Source: Hydrurus foetidus
Lineage: Eukaryota
DNA: 64,000 nt
NCBI GenBank assembly: GCA_900617105.1
Contig: UYFQ01000032.1
Coordinates: forward strand, 496,001-560,000
Reading direction: 5' to 3'
The notes under the pieces are model-generated. The model had not been told where the DNA came from. It worked only from the letters and a program-made list of their open reading frames with translations, and ran no database searches. Below, in pieces: positions 6,102 to 63,998 of the stretch (positions are counted from its first letter, which is position 1; every line of letters begins with the position of its first letter). Made by a program: the position numbers and the translations under genes.

Positions 6102-6532
6102 TCCAACCCAGCCAAGCCGAAGTACGTCGTTTTTTTTGCTCTGTGTATGCCAAAGGGCAATCTGGACAAGCACTGGAAGCTATTGAAACCATAGCAATCC
6201 AGTGGATTGATGAACACCCGGAATACCATGCTGACTTTGCCGATGCCGATGCCGCTGTGGCCCGCATGTACGAGGTGGAAGACGGCAAGACGAATCCGTT
6301 TTTGCACCTGTCCATGCACCTCTCGATCAGCGAGCAATGCAGCATCGACCAGCCACGCGGCATTCGCCAAGCGGTGGAATTGCTGACGCACAAACGCAAT
6401 TCGCTGCACGCGGCTCACCACGAAACGATGGAATGTCTGGGCACCATGCTGTGGGAAAGCCAACGTGCAGGCCGCCCGCCCGATGGCCATGCCTATATTG
6501 ACTGTGTACAGCGACACGCCACCCGCGATTAA
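6095..6532 (+). CDS. DUF1841 family protein
   Basis: HPEYH, NPFLHLSMHLSISEQCSIDQPRGI motifs. Confidence 0.85.
   Translation: MLIQPSQAEVRRFFCSVYAKGQSGQALEAIETIAIQWIDEHPEYHADFADADAAVARMYEVEDGKTNPFLHLSMHLSISEQCSIDQPRGIRQAVELLTHKRNSLHAAHHETMECLGTMLWESQRAGRPPDGHAYIDCVQRHATRD
6141..6195 (-). repeat. ~55-bp dispersed motif copy (inside DUF1841 gene)
   Basis: core GCTATGGTTTCAATAGC, GC at +8/9 and +21/22; T-tract absent. Confidence 0.6.
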
Positions 6533-6533
6533 C

Positions 6534-6573
6534 AAAAAAACCCGCCAAAGCACTGGGCTTTGGCGGGTTTTTT
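6534..6573. terminator. bidirectional intrinsic terminator
   Basis: A-run CCCGCCAAAGC-loop-GCTTTGGCGGG T-run between convergent genes. Confidence 0.88.
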
Positions 6574-6587
6574 GGCAGCTTGCTAAT

Positions 6588-7274: not shown

Positions 7275-7444
7275 TTTGCACGCACAATCAGGTGGGGATT
7301 TGATCTTTCGATCCTCTTTTGATTATAGCTGTCGTCTTTTTCAACAGAGCGTCCCGTGGGTAACAAACACTTGATGGCTTTCACTGATAGCCTCTCACAT
7401 TGCACACATTTAACTCCACCACTCACTGCTCCAGCACTACCCCT

Positions 7445-8299
7445 ATGAAGTTCACAGGTTCAGAAAACTACGTTGCCACCCAAGATTTGATGCTCGCTGT
7501 CAACGCTGCCATCACCTTGAAGCGCCCCTTGTTGGTCAAAGGTGAACCCGGCACCGGCAAAACCATGCTGGCGGAAGAAGTAGCTGCCTCATTGGGCATG
7601 CCACTGTTGCAATGGCACATCAAAAGCACCACCAAAGCACAGCAAGGCCTGTATGAATACGACGCGGTAAGCCGTCTGCGTGACAGCCAACTCAGCAGCA
7701 TTGAGGGCAGCGAGAAGGTCAAAGACATCCATAACTACATCCTCAAAGGGGTTTTGTGGCAAGCCTTTACCGCCGAAGAACCCGTCGCCCTGCTGATCGA
7801 CGAGATCGACAAGGCCGATATTGAGTTCCCGAACGACCTGCTGCGCGAGCTCGACCGCATGGAGTTCTACTGCTACGAGACCCGTGAACTGGTGCGCGCT
7901 AAAAACCGCCCGCTGGTGTTCATCACCTCGAACAATGAAAAAGAACTGCCCGATGCATTTTTGCGCCGCTGCTTCTTCCACTACATCAAGTTCCCCGATG
8001 CCACCACGATGCAGCACATCGTGGACGTGCATTTCCCCAGCCTCAAGAAAGAACTGCTCGCTGCGGCGATGAAAACCTTCTATGAAGTGCGCAACCTGCC
8101 CGGCCTGAAGAAAAAACCCTCCACCAGCGAGTTACTGGACTGGCTCAAACTGTTGGTTGCCGAAGATATTCCGTTGGAAGTTTTACAAAGCAAAGATGAC
8201 AAAGTGAGCTTGCCACCCCTGCTTGGAGCGCTCCTGAAAAATGAGCAAGACGTGACCTTGTTTGAAAAGCTGGTGTTCATGAACCAGCGCAACCGCTGA
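7445..8299 (+). CDS. MoxR family AAA+ ATPase
   Basis: GEPGTGKT Walker A, LLIDEIDKA Walker B, ELPDAFLRRC. Confidence 0.92.
   Translation: MKFTGSENYVATQDLMLAVNAAITLKRPLLVKGEPGTGKTMLAEEVAASLGMPLLQWHIKSTTKAQQGLYEYDAVSRLRDSQLSSIEGSEKVKDIHNYILKGVLWQAFTAEEPVALLIDEIDKADIEFPNDLLRELDRMEFYCYETRELVRAKNRPLVFITSNNEKELPDAFLRRCFFHYIKFPDATTMQHIVDVHFPSLKKELLAAAMKTFYEVRNLPGLKKKPSTSELLDWLKLLVAEDIPLEVLQSKDDKVSLPPLLGALLKNEQDVTLFEKLVFMNQRNR
8192..8246 (-). repeat. ~55-bp dispersed motif copy (inside moxR)
   Basis: core GCTCATTTTTCAGGAGC, GC at +8/9 and +21/22, TTT near +36. Confidence 0.55.
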
Positions 8300-8309
8300 A
8301 GTACGCGCA

Positions 8310-8552: not shown

Positions 8553-8554
8553 CC

Positions 8555-9154: not shown

Positions 9155-9160
9155 ATTCCC

Positions 9161-11164: not shown

Positions 11165-11167
11165 CCG

Positions 11168-13664: not shown

Positions 13665-13721
13665 TCCCCCTTTACCCCACCCGTCCCGCCCGTCATGTCA
13701 CTTTTTCCTTTGGAGACTTTA

Positions 13722-14705
13722 ATGAAACGCAATACTGTTAAATTCATAGCTGCATGCGCAGTAGCAACCTTGGCTACTGGCCTTTTGAGCATTGCACAGG
13801 CGCAAACCAAACTCAAATGGGCGCATGTCTACGAGACCTCGGAGCCGTACCACAAGCAGTCGGTCTGGGCAGCGGAAGAGATCAAAAAACGCAGCAACGG
13901 CAAGTTCGATATCCAGGTGTTCCCCGCCTCCACCTTGGGCAAAGAAAGCGACCTGAACCAGGGCATGACGCTGGGGTCGGTGGACATGATTATCAGCGGC
14001 ACCTCGTTCGCCGCACGGGCTTACCCCCGGCTGGGCATCGCCTATTACCCGTTCATCTTCCGCGATGCCGACCACCTGATTGCCTATGCCAAGAGCGACG
14101 TGTTTGCTGAAATGGTGGAAGGCTACCGCCAAAAAACCGGCATTCAAATTTTGGCCTACACCTACTACGGCGCACGCCACACCACGGCCCAAAAACCGTT
14201 CACCGACTGCGCAGGCATGAAGGGCCTGAAGATTCGCGTGCCTGATGTACCGGCCTACACCGCCACCCCCAAAGCTTGCGGTGCCAACCCCACCCCCATC
14301 GCCTTTGCCGAGGTGTATCTGGCCCTGCAAAACGGCACCGTGGATGCGCAAGAAAACCCGCTGACGACCATCGAAGCCAAGAAGTTTTATGAGGTGCAAA
14401 AAGCCATCATGCTCACCGGCCACATCGTCGATGGCCTGACCACACAGGTCGCACCGCATGTCTGGAACACCCTCAGCGCCGCCGAGAAAACCATGTTCAC
14501 CGAAGTCACCCGCGAAGCCGCTGCCCGCAGCACGGCGGACATCAAAAAACGGGAATCTGAACTGGTGGACGAATTCAAAAAGAAGGGCCTCAATATCGTG
14601 AACGTAGACCGCAAGAGCTTTGTGGACGCGGTGCTGAAGTCGTCCCCGGTGGAGTCGATGGGGTTTGACCGCAAGGACTACGACCGCATCACTTCATTGA
14701 AATAA
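13722..14705 (+). CDS. dctP: TRAP transporter substrate-binding protein
   Basis: signal peptide, GLKIRVP, EVYLALQNGTVDAQENP. Confidence 0.93.
   Translation: MKRNTVKFIAACAVATLATGLLSIAQAQTKLKWAHVYETSEPYHKQSVWAAEEIKKRSNGKFDIQVFPASTLGKESDLNQGMTLGSVDMIISGTSFAARAYPRLGIAYYPFIFRDADHLIAYAKSDVFAEMVEGYRQKTGIQILAYTYYGARHTTAQKPFTDCAGMKGLKIRVPDVPAYTATPKACGANPTPIAFAEVYLALQNGTVDAQENPLTTIEAKKFYEVQKAIMLTGHIVDGLTTQVAPHVWNTLSAAEKTMFTEVTREAAARSTADIKKRESELVDEFKKKGLNIVNVDRKSFVDAVLKSSPVESMGFDRKDYDRITSLK
13734..13788 (+). repeat. ~55-bp dispersed motif copy (encodes part of the DctP signal peptide)
   Basis: core ACTGTTAAATTCATAGC, GC at +8/9, TTTT at +33. Confidence 0.65.
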
Positions 14706-18318: not shown

Positions 18319-19406
18319 GTGCGCTTGAAAAATCACCGGAAAAAAGGTTTACAGCGCAAATCCTGAGGGCGCAAATAGCTGCGATTTTGGTAGCAGCAGG
18401 TAGCACACAGATTGAAGCTCAAACTGTCGCTGCCAACCTCGTGATGGCTAACCTGAGCGGCCACGACTCGCACGGCGTGGGCATGGTGCCGCGCTATGTA
18501 GAGGCAGTGCTTGAAGGCGGTCTGCACCCCAACGCAGACCTCCAAGTGCAGCTTGACATGGGCACGATGCTGAGCCTGGACGCCCAACGCGGCTATGGCC
18601 AGGTGGCAGGGGTACAGGCCATGGAACTGGGCATGGCACGGGCTATGCAGCACGGCAGCTGCATCATGGCACTGGCGAATTCGCACCACCTGGGACGGAT
18701 TGGGCACTTTGCGGAAATGGCGACCGCGCAAGGGCTGGTGTCGATTCATTTGGTGAACGTGCTGTCCCGCCCCGTGGTTGCACCGTGGGGTGGCGGCGAT
18801 GGACGTTTTGGAACAAACCCGTGTTGTATTGGCATACCGTTGCCGGGTGCTGAACCCTTCATCCTCGACTTTGCCACCAGCCGAGTCGCCCAAGGCAAGA
18901 TGCGTGTCGCCTACAACAAGGGCGAAACCGTGGCGCCCGGCATGCTGATCGATGCCCAGGGCCAACCCACCAATGACCCTGGTGTGGTGGTCGTCCCGCA
19001 AGGTGATAACCCGGCACACGGTTTGTTCGGTGCACTGATGACCTTTGGCGAACACAAGGGCTATGGCCTCGCCGTCGCGTGCGAACTTTTGGGTGGCGCA
19101 CTGACAGGCGGTGGTACATGGCACAAACCTGCCGACACCTCACGCGCCGTGCTGAACAGCATGTTGACGGTGCTGATAGACCCCGTCAAATTAGGAACCC
19201 AAGCCCGCTTCGCCCAAGACTCCACCGCCTTCATAGACTGGTTGCGGCGCAGCCCGGCAGGTGCGGGGTTCGAGGGCGTACAGATTGCCGGTGAGCCAGA
19301 ACGCGCAGCGCGCCTTGAGCGCGAACGTGACGGTATCACCATTGACGCCCACACCTGGGCAGACATCAACACCGCCGCCCGAAAAGTCGGCCTCACACTC
19401 CCATGA
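18315..19406 (+). CDS. Ldh_2 family malate/lactate/ureidoglycolate-type dehydrogenase
   Basis: GHDSHG, NSHHLGRIG, GTNP, DFATS, HKGYGL. Confidence 0.9.
   Translation: MSALEKSPEKRFTAQILRAQIAAILVAAGSTQIEAQTVAANLVMANLSGHDSHGVGMVPRYVEAVLEGGLHPNADLQVQLDMGTMLSLDAQRGYGQVAGVQAMELGMARAMQHGSCIMALANSHHLGRIGHFAEMATAQGLVSIHLVNVLSRPVVAPWGGGDGRFGTNPCCIGIPLPGAEPFILDFATSRVAQGKMRVAYNKGETVAPGMLIDAQGQPTNDPGVVVVPQGDNPAHGLFGALMTFGEHKGYGLAVACELLGGALTGGGTWHKPADTSRAVLNSMLTVLIDPVKLGTQARFAQDSTAFIDWLRRSPAGAGFEGVQIAGEPERAARLERERDGITIDAHTWADINTAARKVGLTLP
18340..18394 (-). repeat. ~55-bp dispersed motif copy (N-terminus of Ldh_2 gene)
   Basis: core GCTACCAAAATCGCAGC, GC at +8/9 and +21/22, T6 at +33. Confidence 0.7.
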
Positions 19407-24950: not shown

Positions 24951-25005
24951 ACTTCAAATTTGATAGCTGTTGTCGTTTATACAGCCTGCTATAAATGGGG
25001 TTTTT
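24951..25005 (+). repeat. ~55-bp dispersed motif copy (intergenic)
   Basis: core ACTTCAAATTTGATAGC, GC at +21/22, T5 at +34. Confidence 0.7.
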
Positions 25006-25856: not shown

Positions 25857-25938
25857 GCGGTTCTCCAAAAGAGGGGTATTTGGCCCGCAAACCCGCCACA
25901 CCGCTAGATGTTCCACCCCAGAATACTGTCGCTTAGGC

Positions 25939-30420: not shown

Positions 30421-31503
30421 TCAAATAACCACCGGCTCCGGCTCCAAGCGGATGCCAAAGCGCTCGTACACGCTGGTTTGAATGGCTTTAGCCAAGGTCA
30501 TCACCTCGCCGCCGGTGACGGGGTTGTCCGGCCCGCCCCGGTTCACCAGCACCAGCGCTTGTTTTTCGTAAACCCCGGCATGGCCTATGGTTTTGCCCTT
30601 CCAGCCGCAGGCATCAATCAGCCAACCGGCGGCCAGTTTGATGTTGCCGTCGGCCATTTTGTAATGCACGATGCGTGGCTCGCGCTGGATGATGTCGGCG
30701 CACTGCTCGGGTGACACGGTGGGATTTTTAAAAAAACTGCCAGCATTGCCCAGCACTTTGGGGTCAGGCAGCTTGGCACGGCGGATGGCGCAGACCCACT
30801 CATAAATTTGTAGCGCGTTAGGCATATCCACTTTGCTTTCAAGCTGTTTTTTATCCAACTCAGCGTAGCCCAGTACCGGCTTCCACAGCTTGGGCAGGTT
30901 GAAGCGCACATGGGTAATCAGCGCTTTGCCGGCTAAGCCAAAACCGCGCTCGTCAGAGGCGTGCTTGAACACCGAATCGCGGTAGCCAAAAGCACATTGG
31001 GCGGCGTTCAGCGTGAAGCACTCGCCGGTTTCCAGGTTGATCGCGTCCAGCGATTCAAAGCGGTCTTGCAGCTCCACGCCGTAGGCACCGATGTTTTGCA
31101 CCGGGGCCGCGCCCACGGTGCCGGGGATGAGCGCCAAATTTTCCAAGCCGGGGTAGCCTTGGGCCAAGCACCAGCCCACGCAGTCATGCCAGTTTTCACC
31201 GGCCCCGGCCTCCACAATCCAGGCTTTGGCGGTTTCAGCCACCAAGCGCAAGCCTTTGATTTCGACTTTCAGCACCGGCAGCTTTACATCGCCGGTCAGC
31301 ACGATGTTGCTGCCACCGCCCAAGATGAACACCGGCGATGCGGGCGGGCGCACAAATTCCGGATTCAATGGCAGGTTTAACGGCGGGTCAGCCAGCAGCG
31401 CTTGCAGGCTGGCAACATCAGTCACACGCCACAGCGAAGTGGCGCGGGCCACGATGCCAAAGGCGTTGTGGGCTTGCAGGGGAACGTTGGACTCGAAGAA
31501 CAT
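30421..31503 (-). CDS. murB: UDP-N-acetylenolpyruvoylglucosamine reductase
   Basis: GGGSN, GLENLALIPGTVGAAPVQNIGAYG, FGYRDS, GNAGSFFKNP, LEPEP. Confidence 0.96.
   Translation of the reverse strand: MFFESNVPLQAHNAFGIVARATSLWRVTDVASLQALLADPPLNLPLNPEFVRPPASPVFILGGGSNIVLTGDVKLPVLKVEIKGLRLVAETAKAWIVEAGAGENWHDCVGWCLAQGYPGLENLALIPGTVGAAPVQNIGAYGVELQDRFESLDAINLETGECFTLNAAQCAFGYRDSVFKHASDERGFGLAGKALITHVRFNLPKLWKPVLGYAELDKKQLESKVDMPNALQIYEWVCAIRRAKLPDPKVLGNAGSFFKNPTVSPEQCADIIQREPRIVHYKMADGNIKLAAGWLIDACGWKGKTIGHAGVYEKQALVLVNRGGPDNPVTGGEVMTLAKAIQTSVYERFGIRLEPEPVVI
30798..30852 (+). repeat. ~55-bp dispersed motif copy (inside murB)
   Basis: core ACTCATAAATTTGTAGC, GC at +8/9 and +21/22, T6 at +33. Confidence 0.7.
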
Positions 31504-31570
31504 GGGAGAATTGTCGCACTCCACCTAGTCTCTTCTTACCCCCTCTTTATCCCTCTGAACTGGTTAAACC

Positions 31571-36414: not shown

Positions 36415-36469
36415 AGTCCTGAATTGATAGCTGACTGTGCTTACGAGATAAGTGGATTACGGCATTTAA
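36415..36469 (+). repeat. ~55-bp dispersed motif copy (straddles vapC stop)
   Basis: core AGTCCTGAATTGATAGC, GC at +8/9, TTT at +34. Confidence 0.6.
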
Positions 36470-37120: not shown

Positions 37121-37155
37121 GGCGGTATGGCTTCTAAAGTACGGCTAGCCATATC

Positions 37156-38913
37156 TTAACGAACAAGCTGAGCCCGCGCCTCTTCTTGCAGGCGCAACAC
37201 CCGCCGCTGCACCTTGCCGGTGGTTGTCATCGGCAAAGCATCCGTGAACTCAATCTCCTTGGGGTACTCGTAAGGCGCAAGCTGGCCTTTGACGTGGGCT
37301 TGCAATTGGGCGATCACATCAGCATCAAATTGGGCTTGACCGCTTTCTGATAAAGCACGAGCAGCTACAAAATCAGGAGCAAGCACCACATAGGCTTTTA
37401 CCACGGCACCGCGCTCAGGGTGCGGCTTGGGGACGACGGCGGCGTTGGCGACTGCGGGGTGTTTGACGAGGCAGTTTTCGATCTCACTCGGGCCGATGCG
37501 GTAGCCCGCTGCTTTGAACACATCGTCCGCCCGGCCCTGGTACCAAAGGTAGCCGTCGGCATCGCGGGTGGCAAGGTCGCCGGTGCGGCACCAGTTGCCA
37601 GTGTATTTTTTGGCGGTGGCGCTGTCGTTTTTCCAGTAGCCCAAGAAGAAGATGGGGTCAGGGTTGCCATCCGCATCGAAGCGGTGCAGCGCCACGTCGC
37701 CCGGCACGCCCACGGGGCATTCAACGCCGTCGTCATCAATCACGGCGACGCGGTGCCCGGGGTAGCCTTGGCCCATGCTGCCGGGCTTGGCAGGCCACAG
37801 GCGCGAGCAGTTGCCCACGATGTAGTTGATCTCGGTCTGGCCGAACATCTCGTTCACTGTCACGCCCAATTGCTGCTGGCAATAGTCGAAAACGGCATCG
37901 CCCACCGCCTCACCGGCGCTCATCAGCGCTTGCAATTGCAGGCCGGGGTAGGCTTGGCGCGGCTGGGGGCAGGCCTTCATCATGGCTTTGAGGGCGGTGG
38001 GGAACAAGAAGCTGTGCGTCACGCCGTGCTGCTGCATCAACCCGAACGCCGTCTCGGGGCTGAAGCGGCCATTGAAGGCGACGATGGGGCGACCAAAGTA
38101 AAGCGTGGGCAGCAGCGCGTCCATCAACCCACCTGTCCAAGCCCAGTCGGCGGGACTCCAGAAGACGGCACGGCTTGAGGCCGTGGCATCCCACGGGTCA
38201 AAGCCAAACCAGTTTTGGCTGCACACAAAGCCGCTCAGGTTGCCAATCAAGGCCCGGTGCGGGATCAACGCGCCTTTGGGTGGGCCGGTGGTGCCGCTGG
38301 TGTAGATCAGAACAGCGCCCTCTTCTGCTTTGGTTTTGACAGCTGTGAACGCTTTACTGGCATTCCGTAAGGCGAAATTCCATTCATCAAACCCAGCACC
38401 ATCGACCTCCACAGCCAGCACATGGCGCAAGGCAGGGCAGGCGGCACGCACGGCAGCGATGTTGGCGTGCGTGCTGCTGTCCACGATGGCAACCACGGCA
38501 TCGCTGTCTTGCAAGCGGTATTCCAGCGCTTCAGGGCCGAATAACTGGGACAGCGGCACGGCGATGGCCCCCAACTGCAACACCGCCATGTAGGCCACGG
38601 CGGTCTCGAAGCGCTGGGGCAGCACGATGGCCACACGGTCACCGCGCTGCACGCCCAAACCACGCAGGACGTTGGACGCACGGCAGGCAGCCTCACCCAG
38701 CTCCGCATAGGTATGAAAAACGGGCTCACCGGTTATCTGATGAGCGATGACAGCTATCCTTTCAGAAGCATCAGTTGACTTAGCCCAGCGGGTACTGCAC
38801 ACCTCGGCCATGTTGAAATACTCGGGCACCTGCCAGCGGAACTGGCTGTGCAATTCGCGGTAGCGGTCATGGGTACGTTCAGATGTTTTGTCGCTGCGTT
38901 GACTGCGTGCCAT
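37156..38913 (-). CDS. AMP-dependent acyl-CoA synthetase
   Basis: YTSGTTGPPKG, FGQTE, TGD, GRADD, YEYPK, TTTGK. Confidence 0.93.
   Translation of the reverse strand: MARSQRSDKTSERTHDRYRELHSQFRWQVPEYFNMAEVCSTRWAKSTDASERIAVIAHQITGEPVFHTYAELGEAACRASNVLRGLGVQRGDRVAIVLPQRFETAVAYMAVLQLGAIAVPLSQLFGPEALEYRLQDSDAVVAIVDSSTHANIAAVRAACPALRHVLAVEVDGAGFDEWNFALRNASKAFTAVKTKAEEGAVLIYTSGTTGPPKGALIPHRALIGNLSGFVCSQNWFGFDPWDATASSRAVFWSPADWAWTGGLMDALLPTLYFGRPIVAFNGRFSPETAFGLMQQHGVTHSFLFPTALKAMMKACPQPRQAYPGLQLQALMSAGEAVGDAVFDYCQQQLGVTVNEMFGQTEINYIVGNCSRLWPAKPGSMGQGYPGHRVAVIDDDGVECPVGVPGDVALHRFDADGNPDPIFFLGYWKNDSATAKKYTGNWCRTGDLATRDADGYLWYQGRADDVFKAAGYRIGPSEIENCLVKHPAVANAAVVPKPHPERGAVVKAYVVLAPDFVAARALSESGQAQFDADVIAQLQAHVKGQLAPYEYPKEIEFTDALPMTTTGKVQRRVLRLQEEARAQLVR
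37326..37380 (-). repeat. ~55-bp dispersed motif copy (inside acyl-CoA synthetase, C-terminal part)
   Basis: core GCTCCTGATTTTGTAGC, GC at +8/9 and +21/22, AATTT at +33. Confidence 0.75.
38715..38769 (-). repeat. ~55-bp dispersed motif copy (inside acyl-CoA synthetase, N-terminal part)
   Basis: core GCTTCTGAAAGGATAGC, GC at +8/9, T5 at +33. Confidence 0.7.
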
Positions 38914-41877: not shown

Positions 41878-41960
41878 GGTGGGCAAAGAAGCTGGCGAAG
41901 AAGACGACAAAGAGTTTGGCAAAGGTTTCGGCACAGTGAATTTCAAAAAGATGGCCCTGC

Positions 41961-44345: not shown

Positions 44346-44400
44346 ACTGTAAATTCAATAGCAGCTACCGCTTATCTAAAAAGCGGTAAAGGCTTATTTG
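44346..44400 (+). repeat. ~55-bp dispersed motif copy (upstream of miaB)
   Basis: core ACTGTAAATTCAATAGC, CCGCTT..AAGCGG inner palindrome, TTATTT near +32. Confidence 0.75.
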
Positions 44401-47015: not shown

Positions 47016-48513
47016 GAGGCGTTCCCAAATCAGCAAAAACATCGCCGTCATGCATCATTTTCAAACCTTGGACACCGGGGAAAAAGGCGTACATCGTGCC
47101 CAGGGTGCGTACAAACGGCGTGAAGCCTTGAACCGACACCTGCGTGTCACCGTCGCGCTGGGGAATGTCAAAAAAGGCGGTTTTATCGCTGTGGTGACCT
47201 ATCAAGGGGTCTTTGGCGCTGCCTCGGTTGGGCACACCCATCGGGTTGGCATCGGCCCATTCGCTGAGCAAATGTTCAAACTGGTCTTCCAAGCTGGCGC
47301 AAAAAAACAAACCCAGCAGACCACGCTCGACCGGTGGGGCCGTGCTGTCGGCCTCCTCTGCCGCATTCCACACCGGGCCATAGGGGATGCCGCGCCGTAC
47401 CACGGGGCGGCGGCGGGTGGGCACCACCGCATCGGTGCGGGGGTTCATGCGGCGGATGTGGGCACCAAAGGGGCAGCCTACGCCTTCCTCGTCCTCTCTG
47501 AAATTAAAGCCGTCCAGCCCGTCCGGTGGAGGGGCGTGAGGTGACGCAGGGTGCAGCGCAGGGGCTGTGTTCTCGTCGGGCCTCACGACCTGCCCATTGC
47601 GCCAGCGACCCAGCAATTTTGCACGCAAATATTCTGGTAAAACGTTTATGTTATCTGCGTTACGTGCTACAAATTTTTCAAACTCAAGCACGTCTTGCTG
47701 CATAGGGCGGAAGGCACCAAAGCTGGCATTTTTGAAGAAACAGGCGATCTTGGCAGACTGTTCATGTGCGGGAACGCCCGACAAATCAGGCCGCTCGGTG
47801 GCCAGCCGCCATGCGTTGAAGCCTTCGTCATTCGCGTAACCCAGCAGCACTTCGCCGGGTTGGTGGGCATTCTTAGGAGATTTTGGGGAGGCACCTTGGA
47901 TGTGAACTTTCGAGATACCGTCCAGCATCCCGAAATGAACCCGCCGGGCTTTGCGGGCCTCGGGCGTGTGCTCTAGGTGCTGGCCGTCAAAGGCGTTGCG
48001 CCATCCCGCGTCAGTAAAGGCACCGTTGGCGAGCGTTTGCAGCACGGCTTGGGTAGCGTCCAGCGCCGCTGGGGTGTCCGCGTGCCACGTCAGCAAGACG
48101 TGGGCGGTGTGGGGCTCAAAAAGCGGGTTCCAAAACGTGGCCGCATTGCTGCCGGTATCGGCCAAATGCGCTGCGGCCCTGGGGTACGCCCCTTGCGCAA
48201 AGGCACGGGCTTTGTTTTGAAAGACAGCTTGGTAGCGAGGCTGAAGGCCCAAAGCGACGAGGCCGTTGAACGTCAAACCCAAGCCCACGGGGCATTGGTG
48301 CTCAGACAAGCGCTGGCTGACGTGCCTGCGGTGGTGCTCCGCCGTGGTCAGCCAGTGGTCGTGCGCCAGTTGGACGAGAAAGTCTTTGGCCAGACGCGCA
48401 TCCGCCACCGTCAGCACCACGTAGCGGCTGCAGTGCAGGTCGTAGCCCTGGAGCACCAGTTTTTGAATGTCGTTCAGCGCTAGCGTGGGCTGCGGTGTGG
48501 CGGGCGCACTCAT
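46999..48513 (-). CDS. DyP-type heme peroxidase
   Basis: HFGMLDGIS (GxxDG), CPFGAHIRRMNPR, RRGIPYG, RGLLGLFFCASLEDQFE; ATGA overlap with P450 stop. Confidence 0.88.
   Translation of the reverse strand: MSAPATPQPTLALNDIQKLVLQGYDLHCSRYVVLTVADARLAKDFLVQLAHDHWLTTAEHHRRHVSQRLSEHQCPVGLGLTFNGLVALGLQPRYQAVFQNKARAFAQGAYPRAAAHLADTGSNAATFWNPLFEPHTAHVLLTWHADTPAALDATQAVLQTLANGAFTDAGWRNAFDGQHLEHTPEARKARRVHFGMLDGISKVHIQGASPKSPKNAHQPGEVLLGYANDEGFNAWRLATERPDLSGVPAHEQSAKIACFFKNASFGAFRPMQQDVLEFEKFVARNADNINVLPEYLRAKLLGRWRNGQVVRPDENTAPALHPASPHAPPPDGLDGFNFREDEEGVGCPFGAHIRRMNPRTDAVVPTRRRPVVRRGIPYGPVWNAAEEADSTAPPVERGLLGLFFCASLEDQFEHLLSEWADANPMGVPNRGSAKDPLIGHHSDKTAFFDIPQRDGDTQVSVQGFTPFVRTLGTMYAFFPGVQGLKMMHDGDVFADLGTPHAPQP
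47628..47682 (-). repeat. ~55-bp dispersed motif copy (inside DyP gene)
   Basis: core TTTGAAAAATTTGTAGC, GC at +8/9, AC at +21/22, AATATTT at +33. Confidence 0.55.
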
Positions 48514-50426: not shown

Positions 50427-50459
50427 TCCAGTCCCCTTTTAAATGCGTGTCTGTACGTG

Positions 50460-53400
50460 CTAAACCACCTGTGGCACTCCTTCAAGCATGTTCAGCAAAT
50501 GCGCTGCGGACACCCCATCATGCGTGCTCAAGTCTTCTTTCATGTTGCTCATGGCCAAGCGCAAAGCGTGTTGCGCCTCAGGAATGCGGCCTTGGCGCAT
50601 CCACAGCCGCGCCAAACTGGTGGCAGCACGCAGGGCCAGCGCATCGAGTTGACGGCTGCGGGAGAAATCCAGTGCGCTGCTGAACCAGCGCTCAGCCTCG
50701 GCTTGGCGGTCTTGGCCCTGTAGCGCCGCCGATTGCAACAGCAATTCGCCGTAAAGGCGGCGAATTTCAGGCTCGTAGTAGCGCTCGCCATAGCGTGAAA
50801 CCAAATCAAACGCGGTTTGCAGCAGCGGCAAGCCTTCAATGGGCCGCCCAGCCAGGGCATAACCTTCGGCTTGGATGGCAAGGTAAAAAGCCCGCGTCAC
50901 CACCGCCCCCGTGGCCACCCACATGCTGTAACCCTCGGCCATCTCTGCAATCCCCGCCGTAGCGTCACCCAGTTGCGCCACAGCACGGCCATGGATCAGT
51001 TTGGCATGGGCCAGCCAGACGGCAAAACCGCCTTCTTCGCAGATATCTTTGGCACGTTGCGCATCGTGCAGCGCTTGGGGGTATTCGCCGCGAAAGTAAT
51101 GCAGCATGGCTACCAGCCCAAAGGCTTCACCCTGGCTGAACTTGTGCTTAAGTTGCTCAGCCAGCGCAATGGCAGATTGCCCACGGCGCAAGGCGTCTTG
51201 CGGGTAGCCCAACTCCCATTGGGCCAAGGCGCTGTAGCACAGGCACATCACGCCGGGGTCTTGCACCGCGCCGGGGCGGTGGGCCAGCTGCTGGTAATGG
51301 GCCAGACTCTCGTCCATATGGGCCACCGCAGAGACCAACTCCCCTTGGTGGAACAAAATATTGGCGACAGCCCAGGTGGCCTGCACTTGGCGCATAGGGT
51401 CGCTGGATTGGCTGACCAAATCAGCCGCTTGGGCAGCGATGGCATGGGCTTGGCCAAAGTTACCGCGCATAAAGTGGTAGCCCTCCAGACCGAACTGCAC
51501 TTTCAGCAGCGCACGCTGGTCGCCACTGGCACGGCAAAGCACCAACGCCCGCTGGTAAATCGCCCCGACACGCTCGGCGCCATAGCCTTCGGTCGCGATG
51601 AGCTGCCCAGCCAGCAGCAGTTGCAGGCTGAGCTCGGCGCGGTCACGCTCTTGGCTGGTGGGCAGCATGTCCACCAAAGCCAAGCCCTGCCCCAAATGGC
51701 TGATCGCCTCTTCGTGGGCTGAGCGCGAGAGGGCCATGCGGGCGGCCAGCTCCCAGTGTTGCAAAGCCAGGGCGTGGATACCCGCGCCGGTGTAGTGGTA
51801 AGCCAGCATTTCGGGCTGGCTGCGTGCCAATTCAGGAAAGCACTCGTTCACGGTCAGCGCGATGGCCCGGTGAAACTTGCGGCGATCGCGCTCCCAAAGA
51901 GATTGGTAAGCGGCGTCGCGCATCAGGGCGTGCTTGAAGAAATAGCTTTTGCCTTCCCTGCCTCGCCCATCCCCGCCTCCCGCACCTTTTTGCCCCCCTT
52001 TTTCCATCAGCATGCCAGACACCACCAGCGCATGCAGTCGCCCAGCCAAGTTGTCGGCCCGCAGGGGTGAGCTGTCGTGCGCCAGCACAGCTTCCATCAA
52101 GCTCAAAGAAAACTCACGACCCATGGCGCTGCCCAGTTGGGCGATGTGTTTGGCCCCCGCCAAGCGGTCAAGCCGCGCCATCAGCAGGTCTTGTATCGTG
52201 CCAGGCACGGTAAGCGTGAGGGTGGATACGCCGTCGCGAAGGTCATCGGCTTCCCCAGCGGGACTGATGGCGGTACTGCTGTGGACCACGTTGTCGGCTT
52301 TGAGATCGAGCAGCATGCGGGCCGATTCTTCGATAAACAGGGGCACGCCATCGGCCTTGTCCGCCAATAGCCGAATCGCTTCGCTTGGCAACGGGAAATC
52401 GCCGTAGATGCTTCGGATCATGCTCTGGGTAGCCTCAGGTGTCAGGCCTTTCAACTCCATTTCTTTGACGGCAAAATCAGGCTTTCGCCCCGCTGCAGCT
52501 TCGGTACGTTGGGTGAGCAACAACATCAAAGGCAGGTCTGTGGAAGCCAGTACCACCTGCTTAAGCAGCTCTCGACTGGACGGGTCTAGCCACTGCACGT
52601 CTTCAACCACCAAGCACATGGGGGCGCGGCGTGCCTCTTGGGTAATCCAGCTCACCAGAACTTGGATGGTCACTTGACGTTGCTTTTCGGTAGAAATTTG
52701 GGCCTCTGCTGCCGCGTCACTCCCTGTGGCCGTAGGGCTGAGCTCCTGCGGTATGCCCAAAAGCATGGCCATGGCGTTGAGCGCAGCCAAAGTGTCAAAG
52801 GGAATACGGTGCTCCGTGCGTCGCTCAATACCGCCGAAGACCGTGTCCAAACGCAAACCGGCCTCCAGTTTGGTCAGTTTTTGGACTGCGGTATCGGATT
52901 CTTGAATCTTCAACCAGCGTCGCAGCAAATCCGTAACAGGTCTGAAGGCGCTGTTGGCATGGTCAGGGGTACAGCGGCACTCCCGCGTCAGGTGATTGCG
53001 GGCTATGAGCGCATGCCGAAACTCACGCACCAGCCGGGTTTTACCTATGCCGGCTTCACCCGACACCAAAACGGCTATCCCCGTGCTCTGGCAGGTTTGT
53101 GACCAGCGCTCTTGCAACCAGCCCAGCTCGCGTGCGCGGCCCACGAAGCGGGTGGGTAGTGGCGCTGATTCAGGTGGACTGCTGTAGGCTTGGCGCTCGC
53201 CCAGCAGGCGGTAGGCGGTGCCAGGGCGGTCAATGCCCTTGAGCAGAGGCACCTGCTCCAAAGGTGAAAAATCGAATTGAAGCTTCACTATTTGGCGTGT
53301 GGATTCGCTGACCACCGCTGTTCCCGGTGCCGCAATAGACTGCAAGCGTGCAGCAAAGTGAATCGCTACACCCACCGGCATACCAGCCTTGACGGCGACC

Positions 53401-54791
53401 GATCCCGTCACAATGCCAATGCGAATGCGCAGTTGCAATTGGGCCACCGCCTCCACCATCTCCAGCGCAGCGCGCAAGCACTGTGCGGCGGCGTTTTCAA
53501 AGGCCACGTGCAGGCCAAAGTAACACATCACGCCATCACTGCCCTGTGGATCGTTGGCCACCCCACCCCACTTCACCACAATTTGGGCGCAGCAGGCGTG
53601 GTAGTTGTCCAGCACATCGCTGTACTTCTCTGGCCCCAGTGCATTCAGCAGCTTGGTGGAATCCACCAAATCGTAAGACAACACCGTGACCTGCCGCTGG
53701 TTGTTGACCTCTTGCGGTGGGAGGGTCGGTTGGGCCACGACCGCTGTAGCATCACCGTACAGCGAGGTGTCCAGACAGGCCGATACGGACAGTGTGGCTG
53801 AGCCCTGCGTCACCAAAGCCGCATCGCGCAGTGCTCCACCCAAACTCGCGCCCCGCGCCAAGGCTTTGTAAAACTCGGCCATGTAGCTGGGTTGGTCATC
53901 GCCTGCGAGCAAGGTGTTGCGAAACAAGGCGCTCAAACCTGCGCGGCTGATGCTACTGGCCAGCAGTGCATGGTCATCCCGTGCCCGATGCAGAGTGCTG
54001 GTGAGTGCTTGAGGCGCGCGGCCCATGTCGGTATCGGTACGCTCGAAAATAAGCAGCGCCGGTGGCAAGGCCAAACCTGACAGTTCATGCACCGACACAG
54101 CCCCCGTGCCCGGCTCACCTGCCGCAGGGCGTACCGTGGCAACCAAAGGGCCAATGCAGTGAACGACATCGCTTTCGCCTACCAACCGCAGCAGCTGGGC
54201 ATGGGCCAGCTCATAGGCCACCAAACCTTTGACCGAAATGCCCTCTACCCCTTCCAAGCGACGCAGCAGGCCCTGGGCATACAGGTGGCCAAAGTGCAGC
54301 TCATCGTCCGTGTGAACCACCAGCACCTTGAGTTCATCCACCACCGTTCGGATGGGGGATGGGGCGGTGGCCGGCTGGTCTGACAGCAGATACCGCGAGA
54401 CCACAAACTTATGGCCCCAAAACTGCTGGCCATCAAAGGCTGCTTCCCAGGGGACGGGCTGCAAAGCCTCGTTGATTTGCAAGAACAAGGGCCGCTCTGG
54501 GCTTTCCACCAAAAAGAGACCGATGGATGGTGGCACCAGCCGTGAAAAAATCAGCTGACCCAAGCGGTGAATCCGGTCGTCTTGGCTGCTGTAGTCTGTT
54601 TCCTCGAACGAAGGGGCGGAGGGTTGACGAAGCAGCATCGCCGCTTCAGTCGTGATGTCGTCGAGCGCAGCCGCACTGACAGCGATGACCCCTATGCGCC
54701 CCACGGTGCGCGAATCACTCAGCGATGCCGAGACAAAGCCATGCTCCCACATCAAAGTGAGGCTGATAGGGCGAATGTCAGGGCTGTGCAT
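50460..54791 (-). CDS. multidomain sensor: degenerate CHAT + class III cyclase + AAA/STAND-like NTPase + TPR-like repeats
   Basis: VPWEAAFD/VVHCIG/EFYKAL/LYGD (CHAT-like); RQVTVLSYDLVDST, GSDGVMCYFG, AARLQ (cyclase); FVGRARE, GEAGIGKT, VVEDVQW, DGVPLFIEE, FKHALMRDAAY; helical C-terminus. Confidence 0.85.
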   Translation of the reverse strand: MHSPDIRPISLTLMWEHGFVSASLSDSRTVGRIGVIAVSAAALDDITTEAAMLLRQPSAPSFEETDYSSQDDRIHRLGQLIFSRLVPPSIGLFLVESPERPLFLQINEALQPVPWEAAFDGQQFWGHKFVVSRYLLSDQPATAPSPIRTVVDELKVLVVHTDDELHFGHLYAQGLLRRLEGVEGISVKGLVAYELAHAQLLRLVGESDVVHCIGPLVATVRPAAGEPGTGAVSVHELSGLALPPALLIFERTDTDMGRAPQALTSTLHRARDDHALLASSISRAGLSALFRNTLLAGDDQPSYMAEFYKALARGASLGGALRDAALVTQGSATLSVSACLDTSLYGDATAVVAQPTLPPQEVNNQRQVTVLSYDLVDSTKLLNALGPEKYSDVLDNYHACCAQIVVKWGGVANDPQGSDGVMCYFGLHVAFENAAAQCLRAALEMVEAVAQLQLRIRIGIVTGSVAVKAGMPVGVAIHFAARLQSIAAPGTAVVSESTRQIVKLQFDFSPLEQVPLLKGIDRPGTAYRLLGERQAYSSPPESAPLPTRFVGRARELGWLQERWSQTCQSTGIAVLVSGEAGIGKTRLVREFRHALIARNHLTRECRCTPDHANSAFRPVTDLLRRWLKIQESDTAVQKLTKLEAGLRLDTVFGGIERRTEHRIPFDTLAALNAMAMLLGIPQELSPTATGSDAAAEAQISTEKQRQVTIQVLVSWITQEARRAPMCLVVEDVQWLDPSSRELLKQVVLASTDLPLMLLLTQRTEAAAGRKPDFAVKEMELKGLTPEATQSMIRSIYGDFPLPSEAIRLLADKADGVPLFIEESARMLLDLKADNVVHSSTAISPAGEADDLRDGVSTLTLTVPGTIQDLLMARLDRLAGAKHIAQLGSAMGREFSLSLMEAVLAHDSSPLRADNLAGRLHALVVSGMLMEKGGQKGAGGGDGRGREGKSYFFKHALMRDAAYQSLWERDRRKFHRAIALTVNECFPELARSQPEMLAYHYTGAGIHALALQHWELAARMALSRSAHEEAISHLGQGLALVDMLPTSQERDRAELSLQLLLAGQLIATEGYGAERVGAIYQRALVLCRASGDQRALLKVQFGLEGYHFMRGNFGQAHAIAAQAADLVSQSSDPMRQVQATWAVANILFHQGELVSAVAHMDESLAHYQQLAHRPGAVQDPGVMCLCYSALAQWELGYPQDALRRGQSAIALAEQLKHKFSQGEAFGLVAMLHYFRGEYPQALHDAQRAKDICEEGGFAVWLAHAKLIHGRAVAQLGDATAGIAEMAEGYSMWVATGAVVTRAFYLAIQAEGYALAGRPIEGLPLLQTAFDLVSRYGERYYEPEIRRLYGELLLQSAALQGQDRQAEAERWFSSALDFSRSRQLDALALRAATSLARLWMRQGRIPEAQHALRLAMSNMKEDLSTHDGVSAAHLLNMLEGVPQVV

Positions 54792-60616: not shown

Positions 60617-60635
60617 CTGTTGAGGAGATTTTTTG

Positions 60636-61607
60636 ATGAAACGCCGTTCCCTGATTCAAGCCGCTGGTGCAGCGGTCGCCCTGCCCTCGTTGGCCTGGGC
60701 ACAAGACAAATACCCCAGCAAAGCCATTTCGTGGATTTGCCCTTATGCCGCTGGTGGCAACGCTGACCAGCGCTCACGCCAAGTGGCCAAAGTGATGGGG
60801 GCTTTGCTGGGCCAGCCTATCATCATCGACAACAAATCAGGTGCCGGTGGCAACATTGGCACCGAAGCAATTGCCCGTGGCAAGCCTGACGGCTACACCA
60901 TCGGCATGGGCAACATCGCCCCGCTGGCGGTGAACCAGTCGCTGTTCAAAAAACTGAACTTTGATCCGTTCACCGATTTGGTGCCTATCTTTTTGATCGA
61001 ACGTGGCCCATTGATGCTGATGGTCAAGACGGATTCACCGTTCAAAACGGTGAAAGACGTGGTGGCAGCGGCCAAAGCGGCCCCTGGCAAGCTGGCTTAC
61101 GGCTCAGGCGGCATTGGCGGCACCCACCACTTGAGCGGGGCCTTGTTTGAGCACGCTGCGGGCATCGACATGATCCATGCGCCCTACAAGAGCGGCTCGG
61201 CTGCAGCTACCGATTTGATGGGCGGCCAAGTCAACCTGATGTTTGAGCAAATGTACGCCGCCATGCCTGCTGTCAAGGGCGGAAAAATGCGTGCGTTGGC
61301 TGTCACCAGCAAAGTGCGCTCACCGCTGATGCCTGATGTGCCCACCATGGTCGAAGCGGGCTTTCCCGGTTTTGAAGTGCTGAACTGGCAAGGCTTGGTA
61401 GGCCCCAAAGGGATGCCCGCTGACCTCATCAAGTTGCTGAATGAAATCGGCAACAAAGCGCTGCAAGACCCCGATTTGCGCCTGAAAATCACCAGCCAAG
61501 GCAATGAAGTGGTGGGTGGCACACCCGAGCAGTTCGCCGCCCTCATCAAGGCCGAAGCACCCCGCTGGGCCAAGGTGGTGAAAGACGCGAAGATTGATCC
61601 GGAATAA
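60636..61607 (+). CDS. Bug/TctC tripartite tricarboxylate transporter substrate-binding protein
   Basis: Tat-like KRRSLIQ, PYAAGGNAD, NKSGAGGNIG, PDGYT, HAPYK, PDVPT. Confidence 0.92.
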   Translation: MKRRSLIQAAGAAVALPSLAWAQDKYPSKAISWICPYAAGGNADQRSRQVAKVMGALLGQPIIIDNKSGAGGNIGTEAIARGKPDGYTIGMGNIAPLAVNQSLFKKLNFDPFTDLVPIFLIERGPLMLMVKTDSPFKTVKDVVAAAKAAPGKLAYGSGGIGGTHHLSGALFEHAAGIDMIHAPYKSGSAAATDLMGGQVNLMFEQMYAAMPAVKGGKMRALAVTSKVRSPLMPDVPTMVEAGFPGFEVLNWQGLVGPKGMPADLIKLLNEIGNKALQDPDLRLKITSQGNEVVGGTPEQFAALIKAEAPRWAKVVKDAKIDPE

Positions 61608-61653
61608 GCCATAAAGCGTGAGCCGTGAGCTGACATCGGCTCACGCGCACAGG

Positions 61654-62805
61654 TCAATGCAAGGGCACTGCCGCAGGGATTGCGGTGGTGCCCATTTTGC
61701 TTTGGGCACCCGCATTACCTTGCGACTGCTCAATTTTCTCGATCATCAAATCCACCCACGTTTCCGCATTCAGGGTGATTTTGATGCGCACCGGCAGGTA
61801 CTGCAGCGAGGGTGCAAACCACATTTCGGCGGTGATCGGCCCGCTAGGGTTCGCCAAGGGGCGTGGTTTCAGGTGGTAGGCGCTGATGGTACCCAGGCGC
61901 GGGCTGGTCAGGGTTTCCAGCGCCACCACGTCGTAAGTCCATTCGGCCAAGGCGCTGGGGCGGGCCAGCCACACCTGCACCGTTTTACCCGGCTCAGGCA
62001 CTGCCAAACCCGTTGAAAAGCGGTGGCCCAGCTCGACAAACTGGCTGGCCGTATCTTGCGTGGCGGGCTGGCGGGTGACGTGATTGCCGTCGTACAAGCG
62101 CACCTGCTGCGCGTCCATCGCCACTTGCAGCGCTTTGGTGCCCAGGCGCTTTTCTTCGTAGGCGGCGGGTTCCAAGCCCTGGGGGGTGACAAGGCCTTGG
62201 CTGGTCATCGAAAAAATGGTGACACCGCTCAAACCCAGCTCCACCAGCACCTGGTATTTGGCACCGTCACGCGTCCACTGCACGCGGGCATCGCCCGTGA
62301 TGGGGCCACGGTAATTGCCGCTCAAGGCGTAGCTCAGCCGGGTGTCCAGCGGCCAATCGTCCAACGGTGGGGGAGGCGGTGGTGCGGGGGCTGAAGCCGC
62401 AACCTGCGGTGAGGCGGGTGATGGTGTAGATGCTGGTGGCAGTGCAGGCATCTTGGGGCCGGTGTCCGTTGGGATATCACCTCCGACAATCTCCCCGTCT
62501 GTATCCGCCTTAGCCTGCGCTGTCGTGGTACTGGCCTCTTGCGGCACAGACGGCGAGGGGTTGACTTTTGCTATGGTATTCGCAGCTGCCAGCACTGATC
62601 TGGGTTGCACATGCTGCGGTTTTGGCTTTACAGGAACTGTGAGTGGCAAGGGGGGCAAGCTGCTGCGCAACTCACGGGTGAACAGCGGCACGGCCATCGT
62701 TTTGAGGCGTGCAGGCTCTTGCCACAGCGAGCTCAGCGCCTGCAACGCCAGCAGGTGCAGGGCGATGACGGCCAGCCCAAGCCCCGCAATCAGGCGCCTA
62801 GCCAT
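61654..62805 (-). CDS. DUF3108-like exported protein with Pro-rich linker
   Basis: N-terminal hydrophobic helix, Pro/Ala-rich linker, WP--TRLSY, QDTASQF, EMWFAPSLQYLPVRI. Confidence 0.72.
   Translation of the reverse strand: MARRLIAGLGLAVIALHLLALQALSSLWQEPARLKTMAVPLFTRELRSSLPPLPLTVPVKPKPQHVQPRSVLAAANTIAKVNPSPSVPQEASTTTAQAKADTDGEIVGGDIPTDTGPKMPALPPASTPSPASPQVAASAPAPPPPPPLDDWPLDTRLSYALSGNYRGPITGDARVQWTRDGAKYQVLVELGLSGVTIFSMTSQGLVTPQGLEPAAYEEKRLGTKALQVAMDAQQVRLYDGNHVTRQPATQDTASQFVELGHRFSTGLAVPEPGKTVQVWLARPSALAEWTYDVVALETLTSPRLGTISAYHLKPRPLANPSGPITAEMWFAPSLQYLPVRIKITLNAETWVDLMIEKIEQSQGNAGAQSKMGTTAIPAAVPLH
62570..62624 (+). repeat. ~55-bp dispersed motif copy (inside DUF3108 linker)
   Basis: core GCTATGGTATTCGCAGC, GC at +21/22, TTTT at +34. 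Confidence 0.65.
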
Positions 62806-63998
62806 GCGCCGACCCGCGCTGCATCCTGCACGCCCAAGCGCCAACTGCTGCGGGACGTGTTCACCGCACCTGCGGAACCCGAGGAACCGGTGTGAGGAAC
62901 CGTCAAGCGCAGGCGCATCAGGCGTTTGTCGCGCGATACCAGGGCGCTGACTTCGGTGGCGGTGCCCGCAAGCAGCGGCAGATCGTCCAGCTTGCCCAAG
63001 CGCCAATCGTCTACCCCCAGCCATTCGTCGCCAGTGGCGAAACCGGCTTGCTCCGCCAGCCCGCCACGCAGCACGGTTTTGATACTGACAACACCCCCCG
63101 CCTCCCCCACACGCAAGCCCAGTTGTTGGGCCAGGGCGGCGGGTTCTTCGATGACCTGCACACCATGGCGTTGCAGCAGGTCTTGCCACGGCAGGTCTTG
63201 CGTGCCGTGTACCCAGGCGGCCAACTCGGGCGCGAAACTGCGGCCTGACAGCGCTTGCAGCACGGCGGCAAAGTCGGCTTGCGTCATGGGGCCACTCACC
63301 TCCCCGTTGTCCTCTGCGTTGCAACAACGCAGCCACAGCAGGCGCATCGCGTCATCCAAGGTGGCGGCGCTTTCCTGGCGCAGGGTCAAATCAAAACACA
63401 GCGCCACCAGCGCACCTTTGGTGTAGTAGCTCACCGTGGCATTGGGCGTGTTTTCGTCCACCCGGTAGTATTTTGTCCAGGCTTCAAAACTGGATTTTGC
63501 TACCGAATGGATAGCACGCCCTGGTGTCTGCATGACCTGATTGACGGTTTTGGTCAGCAGCTTCAGGTAGCCCACGTCGTCCAGCAAGCCTGCGCGGCGC
63601 AGCAGCAAGTCGTCGTAGTAGCTGGTGAAACCCTCAAAGAACCACAGCAGTTCGGTGTAGTTTTCTTGGTCGTAGCGGTAAGGCACGAATTCAGCCGGAC
63701 ACAGGCGTTTGACGTTCCAGGTGTGAAAGTACTCGTGGCTGATGAGGCCCAGGAGAGTGGCGTAACCGTCAGGTTGCTTCACGCCCCCGTCAGATTGTTT
63801 GGCGTTAAGCGTTGTTTCTGTGGTCAAGCGTGGCAAATCACGCCGCGTACAAATCAAAGCCGTGGAGTTGCGGTGTTCCAGCCCGCCGTAGCCATCGTCC
63901 ACGGCATTGAGCATGAACAGGTAGTCTTGGTGCGCAGGCTTGGCAGTGCCTTTTTTACTGGGGTGCCAAAACCGAATTTCAGCCTCGCAGATGCTTTG
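62790..63998 (-). CDS. M61 glycyl aminopeptidase with PDZ domain (5'-truncated)
   Basis: GGLEH, HEYFHTWNVKR, WFFEGFTSYY, SYYTKG; frame open to the window edge. Confidence 0.92.
   Translation of the reverse strand, partial: QSICEAEIRFWHPSKKGTAKPAHQDYLFMLNAVDDGYGGLEHRNSTALICTRRDLPRLTTETTLNAKQSDGGVKQPDGYATLLGLISHEYFHTWNVKRLCPAEFVPYRYDQENYTELLWFFEGFTSYYDDLLLRRAGLLDDVGYLKLLTKTVNQVMQTPGRAIHSVAKSSFEAWTKYYRVDENTPNATVSYYTKGALVALCFDLTLRQESAATLDDAMRLLWLRCCNAEDNGEVSGPMTQADFAAVLQALSGRSFAPELAAWVHGTQDLPWQDLLQRHGVQVIEEPAALAQQLGLRVGEAGGVVSIKTVLRGGLAEQAGFATGDEWLGVDDWRLGKLDDLPLLAGTATEVSALVSRDKRLMRLRLTVPHTGSSGSAGAVNTSRSSWRLGVQDAARVGAWLGA
63499..63553 (+). repeat. ~55-bp dispersed motif copy (inside M61 gene)
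   Basis: core GCTACCGAATGGATAGC, TTTT at +33; middle part weaker. Confidence 0.5.

Follow-up and report, generated by a model that had tools for sequence, protein, structure and literature searches.

The 64,000-nt window analyzed here (positions 496,001 to 560,000 of contig UYFQ01000032.1, from an assembly filed under Hydrurus foetidus) contains repeated copies of a 67-bp motif of fixed geometry, a tag of which the chromosomes of many Comamonadaceae each carry hundreds. In a quick tree based on MurB only, the window was placed within this family, adjoining two metagenome-assembled genomes and near Polaromonas. The motif overwrites hundreds of genes, including essential ones, in bacteria of water, soil and wastewater, and as it does so at an amino-acid cost, an abundant reader of the motif must exist. 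We tentatively favor the view that the tag is read as double-stranded DNA by a putative host protein, whose most likely role would be to bias the uptake of DNA during natural transformation. If this proves true, it would be only the third case of sequence-specific transformation and would provide a genetics handle for these bacteria.

The motif in the window

All 13 copies proposed in the initial annotation of the window were found at the positions and on the strands given there. In leave-one-out scoring they reached 11.7 to 42.5 bits, and every copy ranked within the top 10 to 17 of the approximately 128,000 window positions. When a matrix was built on the 85 sites present in 397 kb of a sister genome, G001 (MurB 94% identical), it recovered the 13 copies together with a 14th (Table 1), and no other match exceeded 8 bits; with this matrix, three copies were weak, namely those at 47628 (8.3 bits), 63499 (12.6 bits) and 8192 (14.0 bits). 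As the training set includes, on contig C2 of G001, orthologues of three window genes, those at 44394, 61654 and 62790, the matrix is only partly independent there. A second matrix, built from Polaromonas/Acidovorax loci, recovered ten of the 13 copies as well as the 14th.

Eleven of the 14 copies lie within genes. Ten of the initial 13, including the one in murB, had been described as lying entirely within coding sequences, and all ten were indeed in genes supported by Pfam or NCBIfam. The host genes are unrelated and encode DUF1841 and DUF3108 proteins, an AAA ATPase, DctP, a dehydrogenase, MurB, an acyl-CoA synthetase (three copies), a DyP peroxidase and an M61 peptidase. The excess over codon-preserved sequence on which the initial annotation had staked the motif was also observed: in 57 window open reading frames (ORFs), a set in which one ORF was read on the wrong strand and the M61 peptidase gene was left out, eight matches above 16 bits were found, versus a mean of 0.25 (maximum of 2) in 100 synonymous resamplings and none in 100 runs of codon shuffling. 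Since synonymous resampling abolishes the matches, the motif signal resides in the DNA and is not a by-product of the proteins.

Anatomy and spacing

The motif consists of three linked blocks, two dyads followed by phased T/A tracts. Block 1 is a 17-bp dyad, GCTAT-N7-ATAGC, with an AT centre, of which RTAGC is the best-conserved part. Block 2 is a looser dyad with its centre 23 bp beyond that of block 1, and it is lineage-specific: GCGCTT..AAGCGC in Acidovorax, GCCC..GGGC in Polaromonas and a loose GC..GC in G001. Beyond the dyads lie a T-tract (52-54) and an A-tract (63-66). Among the 13 copies, AGC at 15-17 and T3 were present in all, G25 in 12, C2, C26, C39, T52 and T53 in 11 each, and G38 in nine. 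The blocks of the ~55-bp layout first described were therefore confirmed; the element itself is ~67 bp long, with the further A-tract at +63 to +66 appearing in the genome-wide consensus, and it carries ~48 bits. The second inverted repeat of that layout is loose in the lineage of the window and is not a covarying hairpin.

The earlier observation that spacing is conserved while the sequence is degenerate was borne out in three genomes, where block 2 stood at shift 0 for 68 of 163, 61 of 136 and 55 of 124 core seeds (about half of all core seeds being mirror readings of the palindromic core) and at any shift of 1-3 bases for at most two. A pattern with an 18-bp core matched virus records four times, versus 89 times with the correct spacing, the two patterns also differing at one fixed base. 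The arms of block 1 showed no covariation, pairing less than permuted rows in all three genomes, while base pairing in block 2 was slightly above permuted rows only in G001 (386 vs 359, p 0.012); across seven hairpin registers, nothing went beyond p ~0.01, which was reached at one off-centre register. A hairpin after RTAG is good in Acidovorax and poor in G001, with no clear covariation. The folding energy of block 2 was below that of column shuffles in two of the three genomes, which could be explained by uneven copy quality. The motif had no Rfam family match at gathering score, and two tRNAs were the sole Rfam matches in the window. One further genome, G263, has a dialect in which the first dyad is reduced to its right half, as in the integron cassette copies described below, which suggests that the left half is dispensable for the putative reader.

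Range and placement in Comamonadaceae genomes

A 26-base pattern matched 329 times in G001, 456 times in Polaromonas aquatica and 404 times in Acidovorax sp. M2 (G004), compared with zero or one match in the tested Sphaerotilaceae, and a reversed-pattern control gave 0-10 matches. Across 301 family genomes, 86 had 20-871 strict matches (median of 183), nine had 10-19 and 206 had fewer, with forward and reverse counts alike; the strict pattern can overlook dialects, as in G263, which has five strict matches but six matrix matches in 21 kb. Motif-free genomes are nested among motif-rich ones in the MurB tree. Diaphorobacter aerolatus had no match above 16 bits in 241 kb, and Aquabacterium none in 800 kb. 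This sharp presence or absence among close relatives should make the reader findable by whole-genome profiling. In addition, three Polaromonas genomes (G305, G312 and G314) have only 49-55 strict matches versus 300-500 in most congeners, possibly reflecting ongoing decay of the motif, and should be of use in the search for the reader.

The motif density in G001 is 2.1 per 10 kb, and even spacing is ruled out, as the gaps between sites are random (coefficient of variation (CV) of 0.98 vs 0.97 for random placement). Hundreds of sites occur all round two complete chromosomes without an ori-ter pattern. No replichore orientation was seen among 52 sites in Acidovorax G004 (22 leading, 30 lagging), unlike the polar motifs KOPS and Chi. 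Apparent one-strand runs are attributed to chance or to cut-offs in the match lists rather than to a polar strand domain, as nine plus and 12 minus copies were present in seven stretches sampled inside the run of G004, and copies were found on both strands in the samples of genome G003. Orientation is also independent of transcription (40 copies with, 43 against). Given the random gaps and the lack of ori-ter or replichore pattern, the role in chromosome architecture suggested in the initial annotation was neither shown nor excluded.

The copies had also been described as lying mostly inside genes, which holds for this lineage (49 of 88 copies coding in G001); Polaromonas aquatica and Acidovorax depart from it (19 of about 65-74). 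In G001, 29 of 46 coding copies lie in two mirror-image frames. Non-coding copies favor convergent gaps and the first 60 bases past a stop codon, and divergent (promoter) gaps are avoided; with gap classes taken from our own, imperfect gene caller, nine copies were counted in 17 convergent gaps of G001 versus two in 42 divergent gaps. With respect to competence loci, the pilQ region (4.3 kb) had no copy in any of 15 motif-rich genomes and neither had three pilA loci, while comEC loci of motif-rich genomes contained the motif in seven of ten cases, at varying places.

Plasmid and low-GC DNA is poor in the motif. Seven Comamonadaceae plasmids gave six strict matches in 2.0 Mb, and the four Polaromonas plasmids gave one in 1.24 Mb, versus ~100 per Mb in the P. 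aquatica chromosome, which served as the reference in place of the plasmids' own host chromosomes. The lowest-GC fifth of 5-kb bins had 0.31-0.38 matches versus 0.75-1.16, a two- to four-fold depletion that was significant in G001 and borderline in the other two genomes. Three of the four virus records checked among those behind the 89 strict matches were proviruses, and BLAST against cultured phages gave no real match to the motif. NZ_CP083452 of Comamonas odontotermitis, which is filed as a plasmid, carries priA, argB and slmA and has ten matrix matches in 49 kb, a chromosome-like density; it is a chromid or a chromosome fragment.

How sites arise and change

At the murB site, the score climbs along the tree: it is near -50 bits where the motif is absent, lies between -30 and +24 in Polaromonas and reaches +29 in the window. 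This rise involves no indel, and the residue changes fit the motif, so that the site was gained by point substitution; it is absent in motif-rich Acidovorax. Two of the three sites in the acyl-CoA synthetase lengthen the protein by 0-2 residues. The third coincides with an insertion of 12 residues; motif-free Comamonadaceae have retained this insertion but not the motif, an indication that the motif was later lost in those lineages.

Comparison with outgroup orthologues was feasible for 16 of 86 coding sites, two more falling outside the alignment. Ten of the 16 add at most one residue, and six sit on insertions of 4-18 residues (one of them of 18), versus insertions in 7.4% of the 1,951 windows used as controls. 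Two of these 16 sites were probably called in the wrong frame, and without them, nine of 14 add none. The analogy with Rickettsia palindromic elements (RPEs) drawn in the initial annotation therefore fits only a minority of the sites compared. The host protein segments are 37.5% identical to outgroup orthologues, compared with 68% elsewhere.

The copies within a genome are not clonal. Nearest-neighbour copies differ at 15-24 or more of 69 positions, on average 1-3 fewer than in column shuffles. Near-identical copies were not found in the genomes compared, and neither were target duplications, with at most three of 49-62 copies sharing a flanking direct repeat. For the 37326 site, the Polaromonas matrix gave the better fit to 11 of 13 Polaromonas orthologues, and the G001 matrix to all three from the clade of the window, a comparison of two clades and hence of few independent events. 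As the copies are non-clonal and this old site follows the dialect of each clade, sites are held and re-tuned singly at the DNA level. The exact spacing, the lack of orientation bias and covariation, the independence of the copies and the gain of the murB site by substitution all support the protein-binding site, genome-wide and overlaid on coding DNA, that was first proposed from the window.

The motif in gcuF/DUF1010 integron cassettes

When an Acidovorax copy of the motif was compared with plasmids by BLAST, the matches were DUF1010 (PF06231) cassettes. The cassette between dfrA12 and aadA2, known as gcuF, scores 55.6 bits; plasmid pYKBP039 carries six such cassettes in tandem, and at a coverage of at least 80% the cassette is present on 1,803 of 72,556 plasmids. 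Three such cassettes are found in chromosomal attC arrays of Acidovorax G004, in which short attC arrays with gcuF-like cassettes were observed at ~3.022 Mb and ~2.827 Mb. In all 11 cassettes compared, a single Acidovorax-type copy stands at a constant offset, and no other cassette part is conserved as well as the motif (0.86 vs 0.79, 0.72 and 0.63); the 11 were chosen by motif score, while the top DUF1010 matches in G004 were found independently. In two shortened cassettes, the lost DNA reaches up to the edge of the motif. Unlike in the full chromosomal motif, the first dyad of the gcuF copies is without its left half, and unlike the cassettes, chromosomal copies have no attC. According to Hocquet et al. 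(PMC3375312), gcuF1 (319 bp) most resembles a cassette of Acidovorax JS42. Whatever its mechanism, the motif offers a concrete and testable cargo for gcuF, which is among the commonest class 1 integron cassettes without an assigned function.

What may read the motif

Under a bias in DNA uptake, fragments with a better motif match would be taken up and recombined more often, and matches would accumulate wherever the protein or promoter tolerates them, a molecular drive as for the uptake signal sequence (USS) and the DNA uptake sequence (DUS). An altered reader would re-tune old sites, loss of the reader would let sites decay, and cassette arrays that have no tag of their own would receive it through gcuF/DUF1010 cassettes. 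We tentatively favor this account since it is the simplest one for sites that arise wherever they are tolerated, are dispensable one by one, avoid foreign DNA and form dialects. The motif resembles an uptake sequence in its genomic behaviour and, by analogy, may belong to that class. The competence genes PilQ, ComEC and ComEA are present in motif-rich genomes, and Acidovorax temperans and A. facilis are naturally transformable (PMC4212676). According to Mora et al. (2021, PMC7811141), USS and DUS are under-represented in newly acquired and constrained coding DNA. A more far-reaching and rather doubtful version is that Comamonadaceae are a third bacterial family with self-DNA uptake specificity, in which a receptor other than ComP reads the 67-bp signal of three blocks, and that the ORF-poor gcuF cassettes (~1,800 plasmids) are portable self tags for their original Comamonadaceae hosts.

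Several observations weigh against an uptake function. No reader was found among the competence genes, the pilins or the RAYT-like gene described below. PilQ (above the cut-off in 294 of 301 genomes, with no motif-linked signature), ComEC (15 of 16 genomes) and ComEA (helix-hairpin-helix (HhH)/ComEA-type matches in 22 of 22 genomes) were rejected, being present in motif-rich and motif-free genomes alike, and the copy number of PilE/ComP-like pilins does not track the motif (at least two in 22 of 86 motif-rich genomes). When all prepilin-like genes of three motif-rich genomes were examined, no conserved orphan pilin was common to them, and their minor-pilin operons are highly divergent. Verminephrobacter eiseniae is the sole relative with evidence of selective uptake (PMC4212676); in the supplement of Tong et al. 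(PMC5217627), which was used here in place of the chromosome itself, it has one unrelated spaced pair, versus 53-140 pairs in Acidovorax ebreus, P. naphthalenivorans and Rhodoferax ferrireducens, and its uptake result was therefore not counted as support. At ~48 bits and one per 4.5 kb, the motif is longer and sparser than DUS and USS. Weak sites are rare in G003 and G004, which, together with the insertions under six of 16 coding copies (one of 18 residues), is less well explained by a drive of point mutations alone. Moreover, all of the genomic patterns observed would suit an intracellular binder as well.

Such a binder could be a nucleoid or DNA-processing protein of the cytoplasm, specific to the clade, that might organize the chromosome or tell it from incoming DNA; we regard this as possible though on the doubtful side. 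A dimer of dimers would read the two dyads and bend the A-tracts. The two dyads 23 bp apart, the exact spacing and the core conserved across genera are as expected for it, as are the sharply bimodal scores, by which each site is held at high quality, the chromosome-like density on the C. odontotermitis chromid and the failure of competence genes to track the motif. However, random gaps and the missing ori-ter pattern argue against a ruler or macrodomain role, single sites can be dispensed with (motif-rich Acidovorax has none in murB), lineages such as D. aerolatus live without the motif, and no candidate protein was found. SlmA was set aside as a reader on the number and distribution of sites. 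The gene for this nucleoid occlusion factor was observed beside argB in the window (41092-41946).

It is unlikely, but would account for part of the data, that the motif is an old palindromic repeat akin to repetitive extragenic palindromes (REPs) and RPEs, spread by an HUH enzyme of the REP-associated tyrosine transposase (RAYT) type and later domesticated, with RTAG as the REP 'foot'. The best-conserved block, RTAGC, precedes an imperfect hairpin in Acidovorax, non-coding copies are concentrated just past stop codons and within convergent gaps, some insertions (12 and 18 residues) are in frame, and the low folding energy of block 2 in two of three genomes is in the same direction. On the other hand, near-identical copies and target duplications are missing, the base-pair excess is absent in the first dyad and weak in the second in one of three genomes, and nine of 14 credible coding sites have no length change, and the murB site was gained by substitution. 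In five of five Comamonadaceae, the HUH and tyrosine motifs are intact in a single RAYT-like gene near pilQ, which has lost the tyrosine motif in Aquabacterium, but this gene is present in 26 of 28 genomes, motif-rich or not, which also led to its rejection as a reader, and it is not flanked by paired copies. This gene (G001:C11:75596-76297 and orthologues) is single-copy, lies 5-10 kb from pilQ in many genomes, has no flanking REPs and looks domesticated. The GTAG survey of Di Nocera (PMC3733652), in its available part, names none of the Burkholderiales genera looked for. A transcription-factor operator, terminator or RNA stability element is highly improbable and largely refuted: the first dyad does fit the T-N11-A of LysR-like operators and many non-coding copies come after stop codons, but divergent promoter gaps are avoided, orientation is independent of transcription, half of the copies are in the coding DNA of unrelated genes, and neither an Rfam match nor clear covariation was found.

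Copies and neighbouring genes in the window

The 14 copies are listed in Table 1. The gene cluster at 44961-54791, in which only the weakest copy lies, is possibly acquired DNA; besides the DyP peroxidase it encodes a patatin, a protein resembling P450 and an adenylate-cyclase-like/TOMM-fusion-like protein of 1,443 aa. At 34531-35263 and 36441-37159, genes for PIN-family toxins were observed next to small ORFs; both are likely toxin-antitoxin pairs.

Table 1. Position, strand, score and location of the motif copies in the window (gene coordinates and strands in brackets)
Position	Strand	Score (bits)	Location
6141..6195	-	30.2	in DUF1841 gene (6041-6532, +; Pfam PF08897), antisense
8192..8246	-	14.0	near 3' end of AAA ATPase gene (7400-8299, +); weak
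13734..13788	+	28.3	N-terminal region of TRAP DctP gene (13695-14705, +)
18340..18394	-	31.5	start of malate/lactate/ureidoglycolate dehydrogenase gene (18315-19406, +)
24951..25005	+	36.3	intergenic, immediately downstream of SDR gene (25014-25916, -)
30798..30852	+	30.0	murB (30421-31524, -), residues 225-243; overprinted, length unchanged
36415..36469	+	23.7	across 3' end of PIN/VapC gene and the gap before aldo-keto reductase gene
37326..37380	-	41.3	acyl-CoA synthetase gene (37156-38913, -), residues 512-530; on 12-residue insertion relative to Sphaerotilaceae orthologues
38327..38381	+	26.5	acyl-CoA synthetase gene (37156-38913, -), residues 178-196, without insertion; 14th copy, added here
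38715..38769	-	30.7	acyl-CoA synthetase gene (37156-38913, -), residues 49-67; ~2 residues longer than most outgroup orthologues
44346..44400	+	45.2	between end of 164-aa ORF and start of miaB; best copy
47628..47682	-	8.3 (20.8 leave-one-out)	DyP peroxidase gene (46999-48528, -), no gap there relative to solved DyP chains; weakest copy
62570..62624	+	35.3	DUF3108 gene (61654-63336, -)
63499..63553	+	12.6	M61 peptidase gene (62790 to beyond 63998, -); weak

Comparison with known systems

Like the REP/REPIN-RAYT system (REPINs being paired REPs) and RPEs, the motif has RTAG before an imperfect palindrome, with a hairpin that is good in Acidovorax and poor in G001, a preference for positions after stop codons and some in-frame insertions. 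Unlike them, it has no young subfamilies and no paired copies around the RAYT-like gene, and its coding copies mostly overprint. The association with a RAYT gene that marks REPs was not found, the RAYT-like gene being neither flanked by motif copies nor tracking their presence, and the full-length in-frame insertion typical of RPEs is not the pattern here, with an 18-residue insert at one of 16 sites and at most one added residue at ten. The sites of SlmA and MatP number a few tens and either avoid the terminus or are restricted to it, whereas the motif numbers hundreds all round two complete chromosomes.

Among dispersed repeats of the family, BRE is a GC-rich 90-bp Comamonadaceae repeat with at most 29 copies, and the BRE sequence compared, from PMC3110155, does not contain the motif core. 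VeiPR1 is called unique to V. eiseniae in the available text of PMC3975124; it was compared by description, and the sole spaced pair listed for V. eiseniae in the accessible tables does not match the geometry of the motif. The available text of Kjeldsen (2012, PMC3318438) has no passage on repeats. Within a literature search that covered mainly open papers (most subscription papers, Pinel's VeiPR1 thesis and bioRxiv supplements being outside it), no description of the whole element or of a Comamonadaceae uptake sequence was found.

Fragments of the motif are, however, already present in Tong et al. (2017, PMC5217627), whose accessible tables list GCTTAT(N5)AAGCG with 114 copies in Acidovorax ebreus TPSY and ATAGCT(N22)CAAAAG with 125 copies in Polaromonas naphthalenivorans CJ2. 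These spaced pairs fit the motif blocks at the right distances and have the same convergent-gap bias; in the portions of that paper at hand, they are separate 'potential novel motifs' in single genomes, without the full element, its family range, the overprinting, the cassette link or a mechanism. The element, which the initial annotation could match to no described repeat, is thus not wholly unreported; it is undescribed as a system.

The closest parallel is with uptake sequences, whose core is 9-12 bp, or 29-32 bp with tracts. Unlike these, the motif is ~67 bp long with two dyads, occurs about once per 4.5 kb, is palindromic in itself rather than paired, and had no conserved pilin reader in the three motif-rich genomes studied in detail. 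According to PMC7811141, USS and DUS are the uptake signals of Pasteurellaceae and Neisseriaceae, respectively. Like them, the motif is present in high copy number, within and between genes and in either orientation, is scarce in newly acquired and constrained DNA, has AT tracts at fixed spacing and forms lineage dialects, and like their hosts, motif-rich genomes have type IV pili and ComEC, which are shared with their motif-free relatives.

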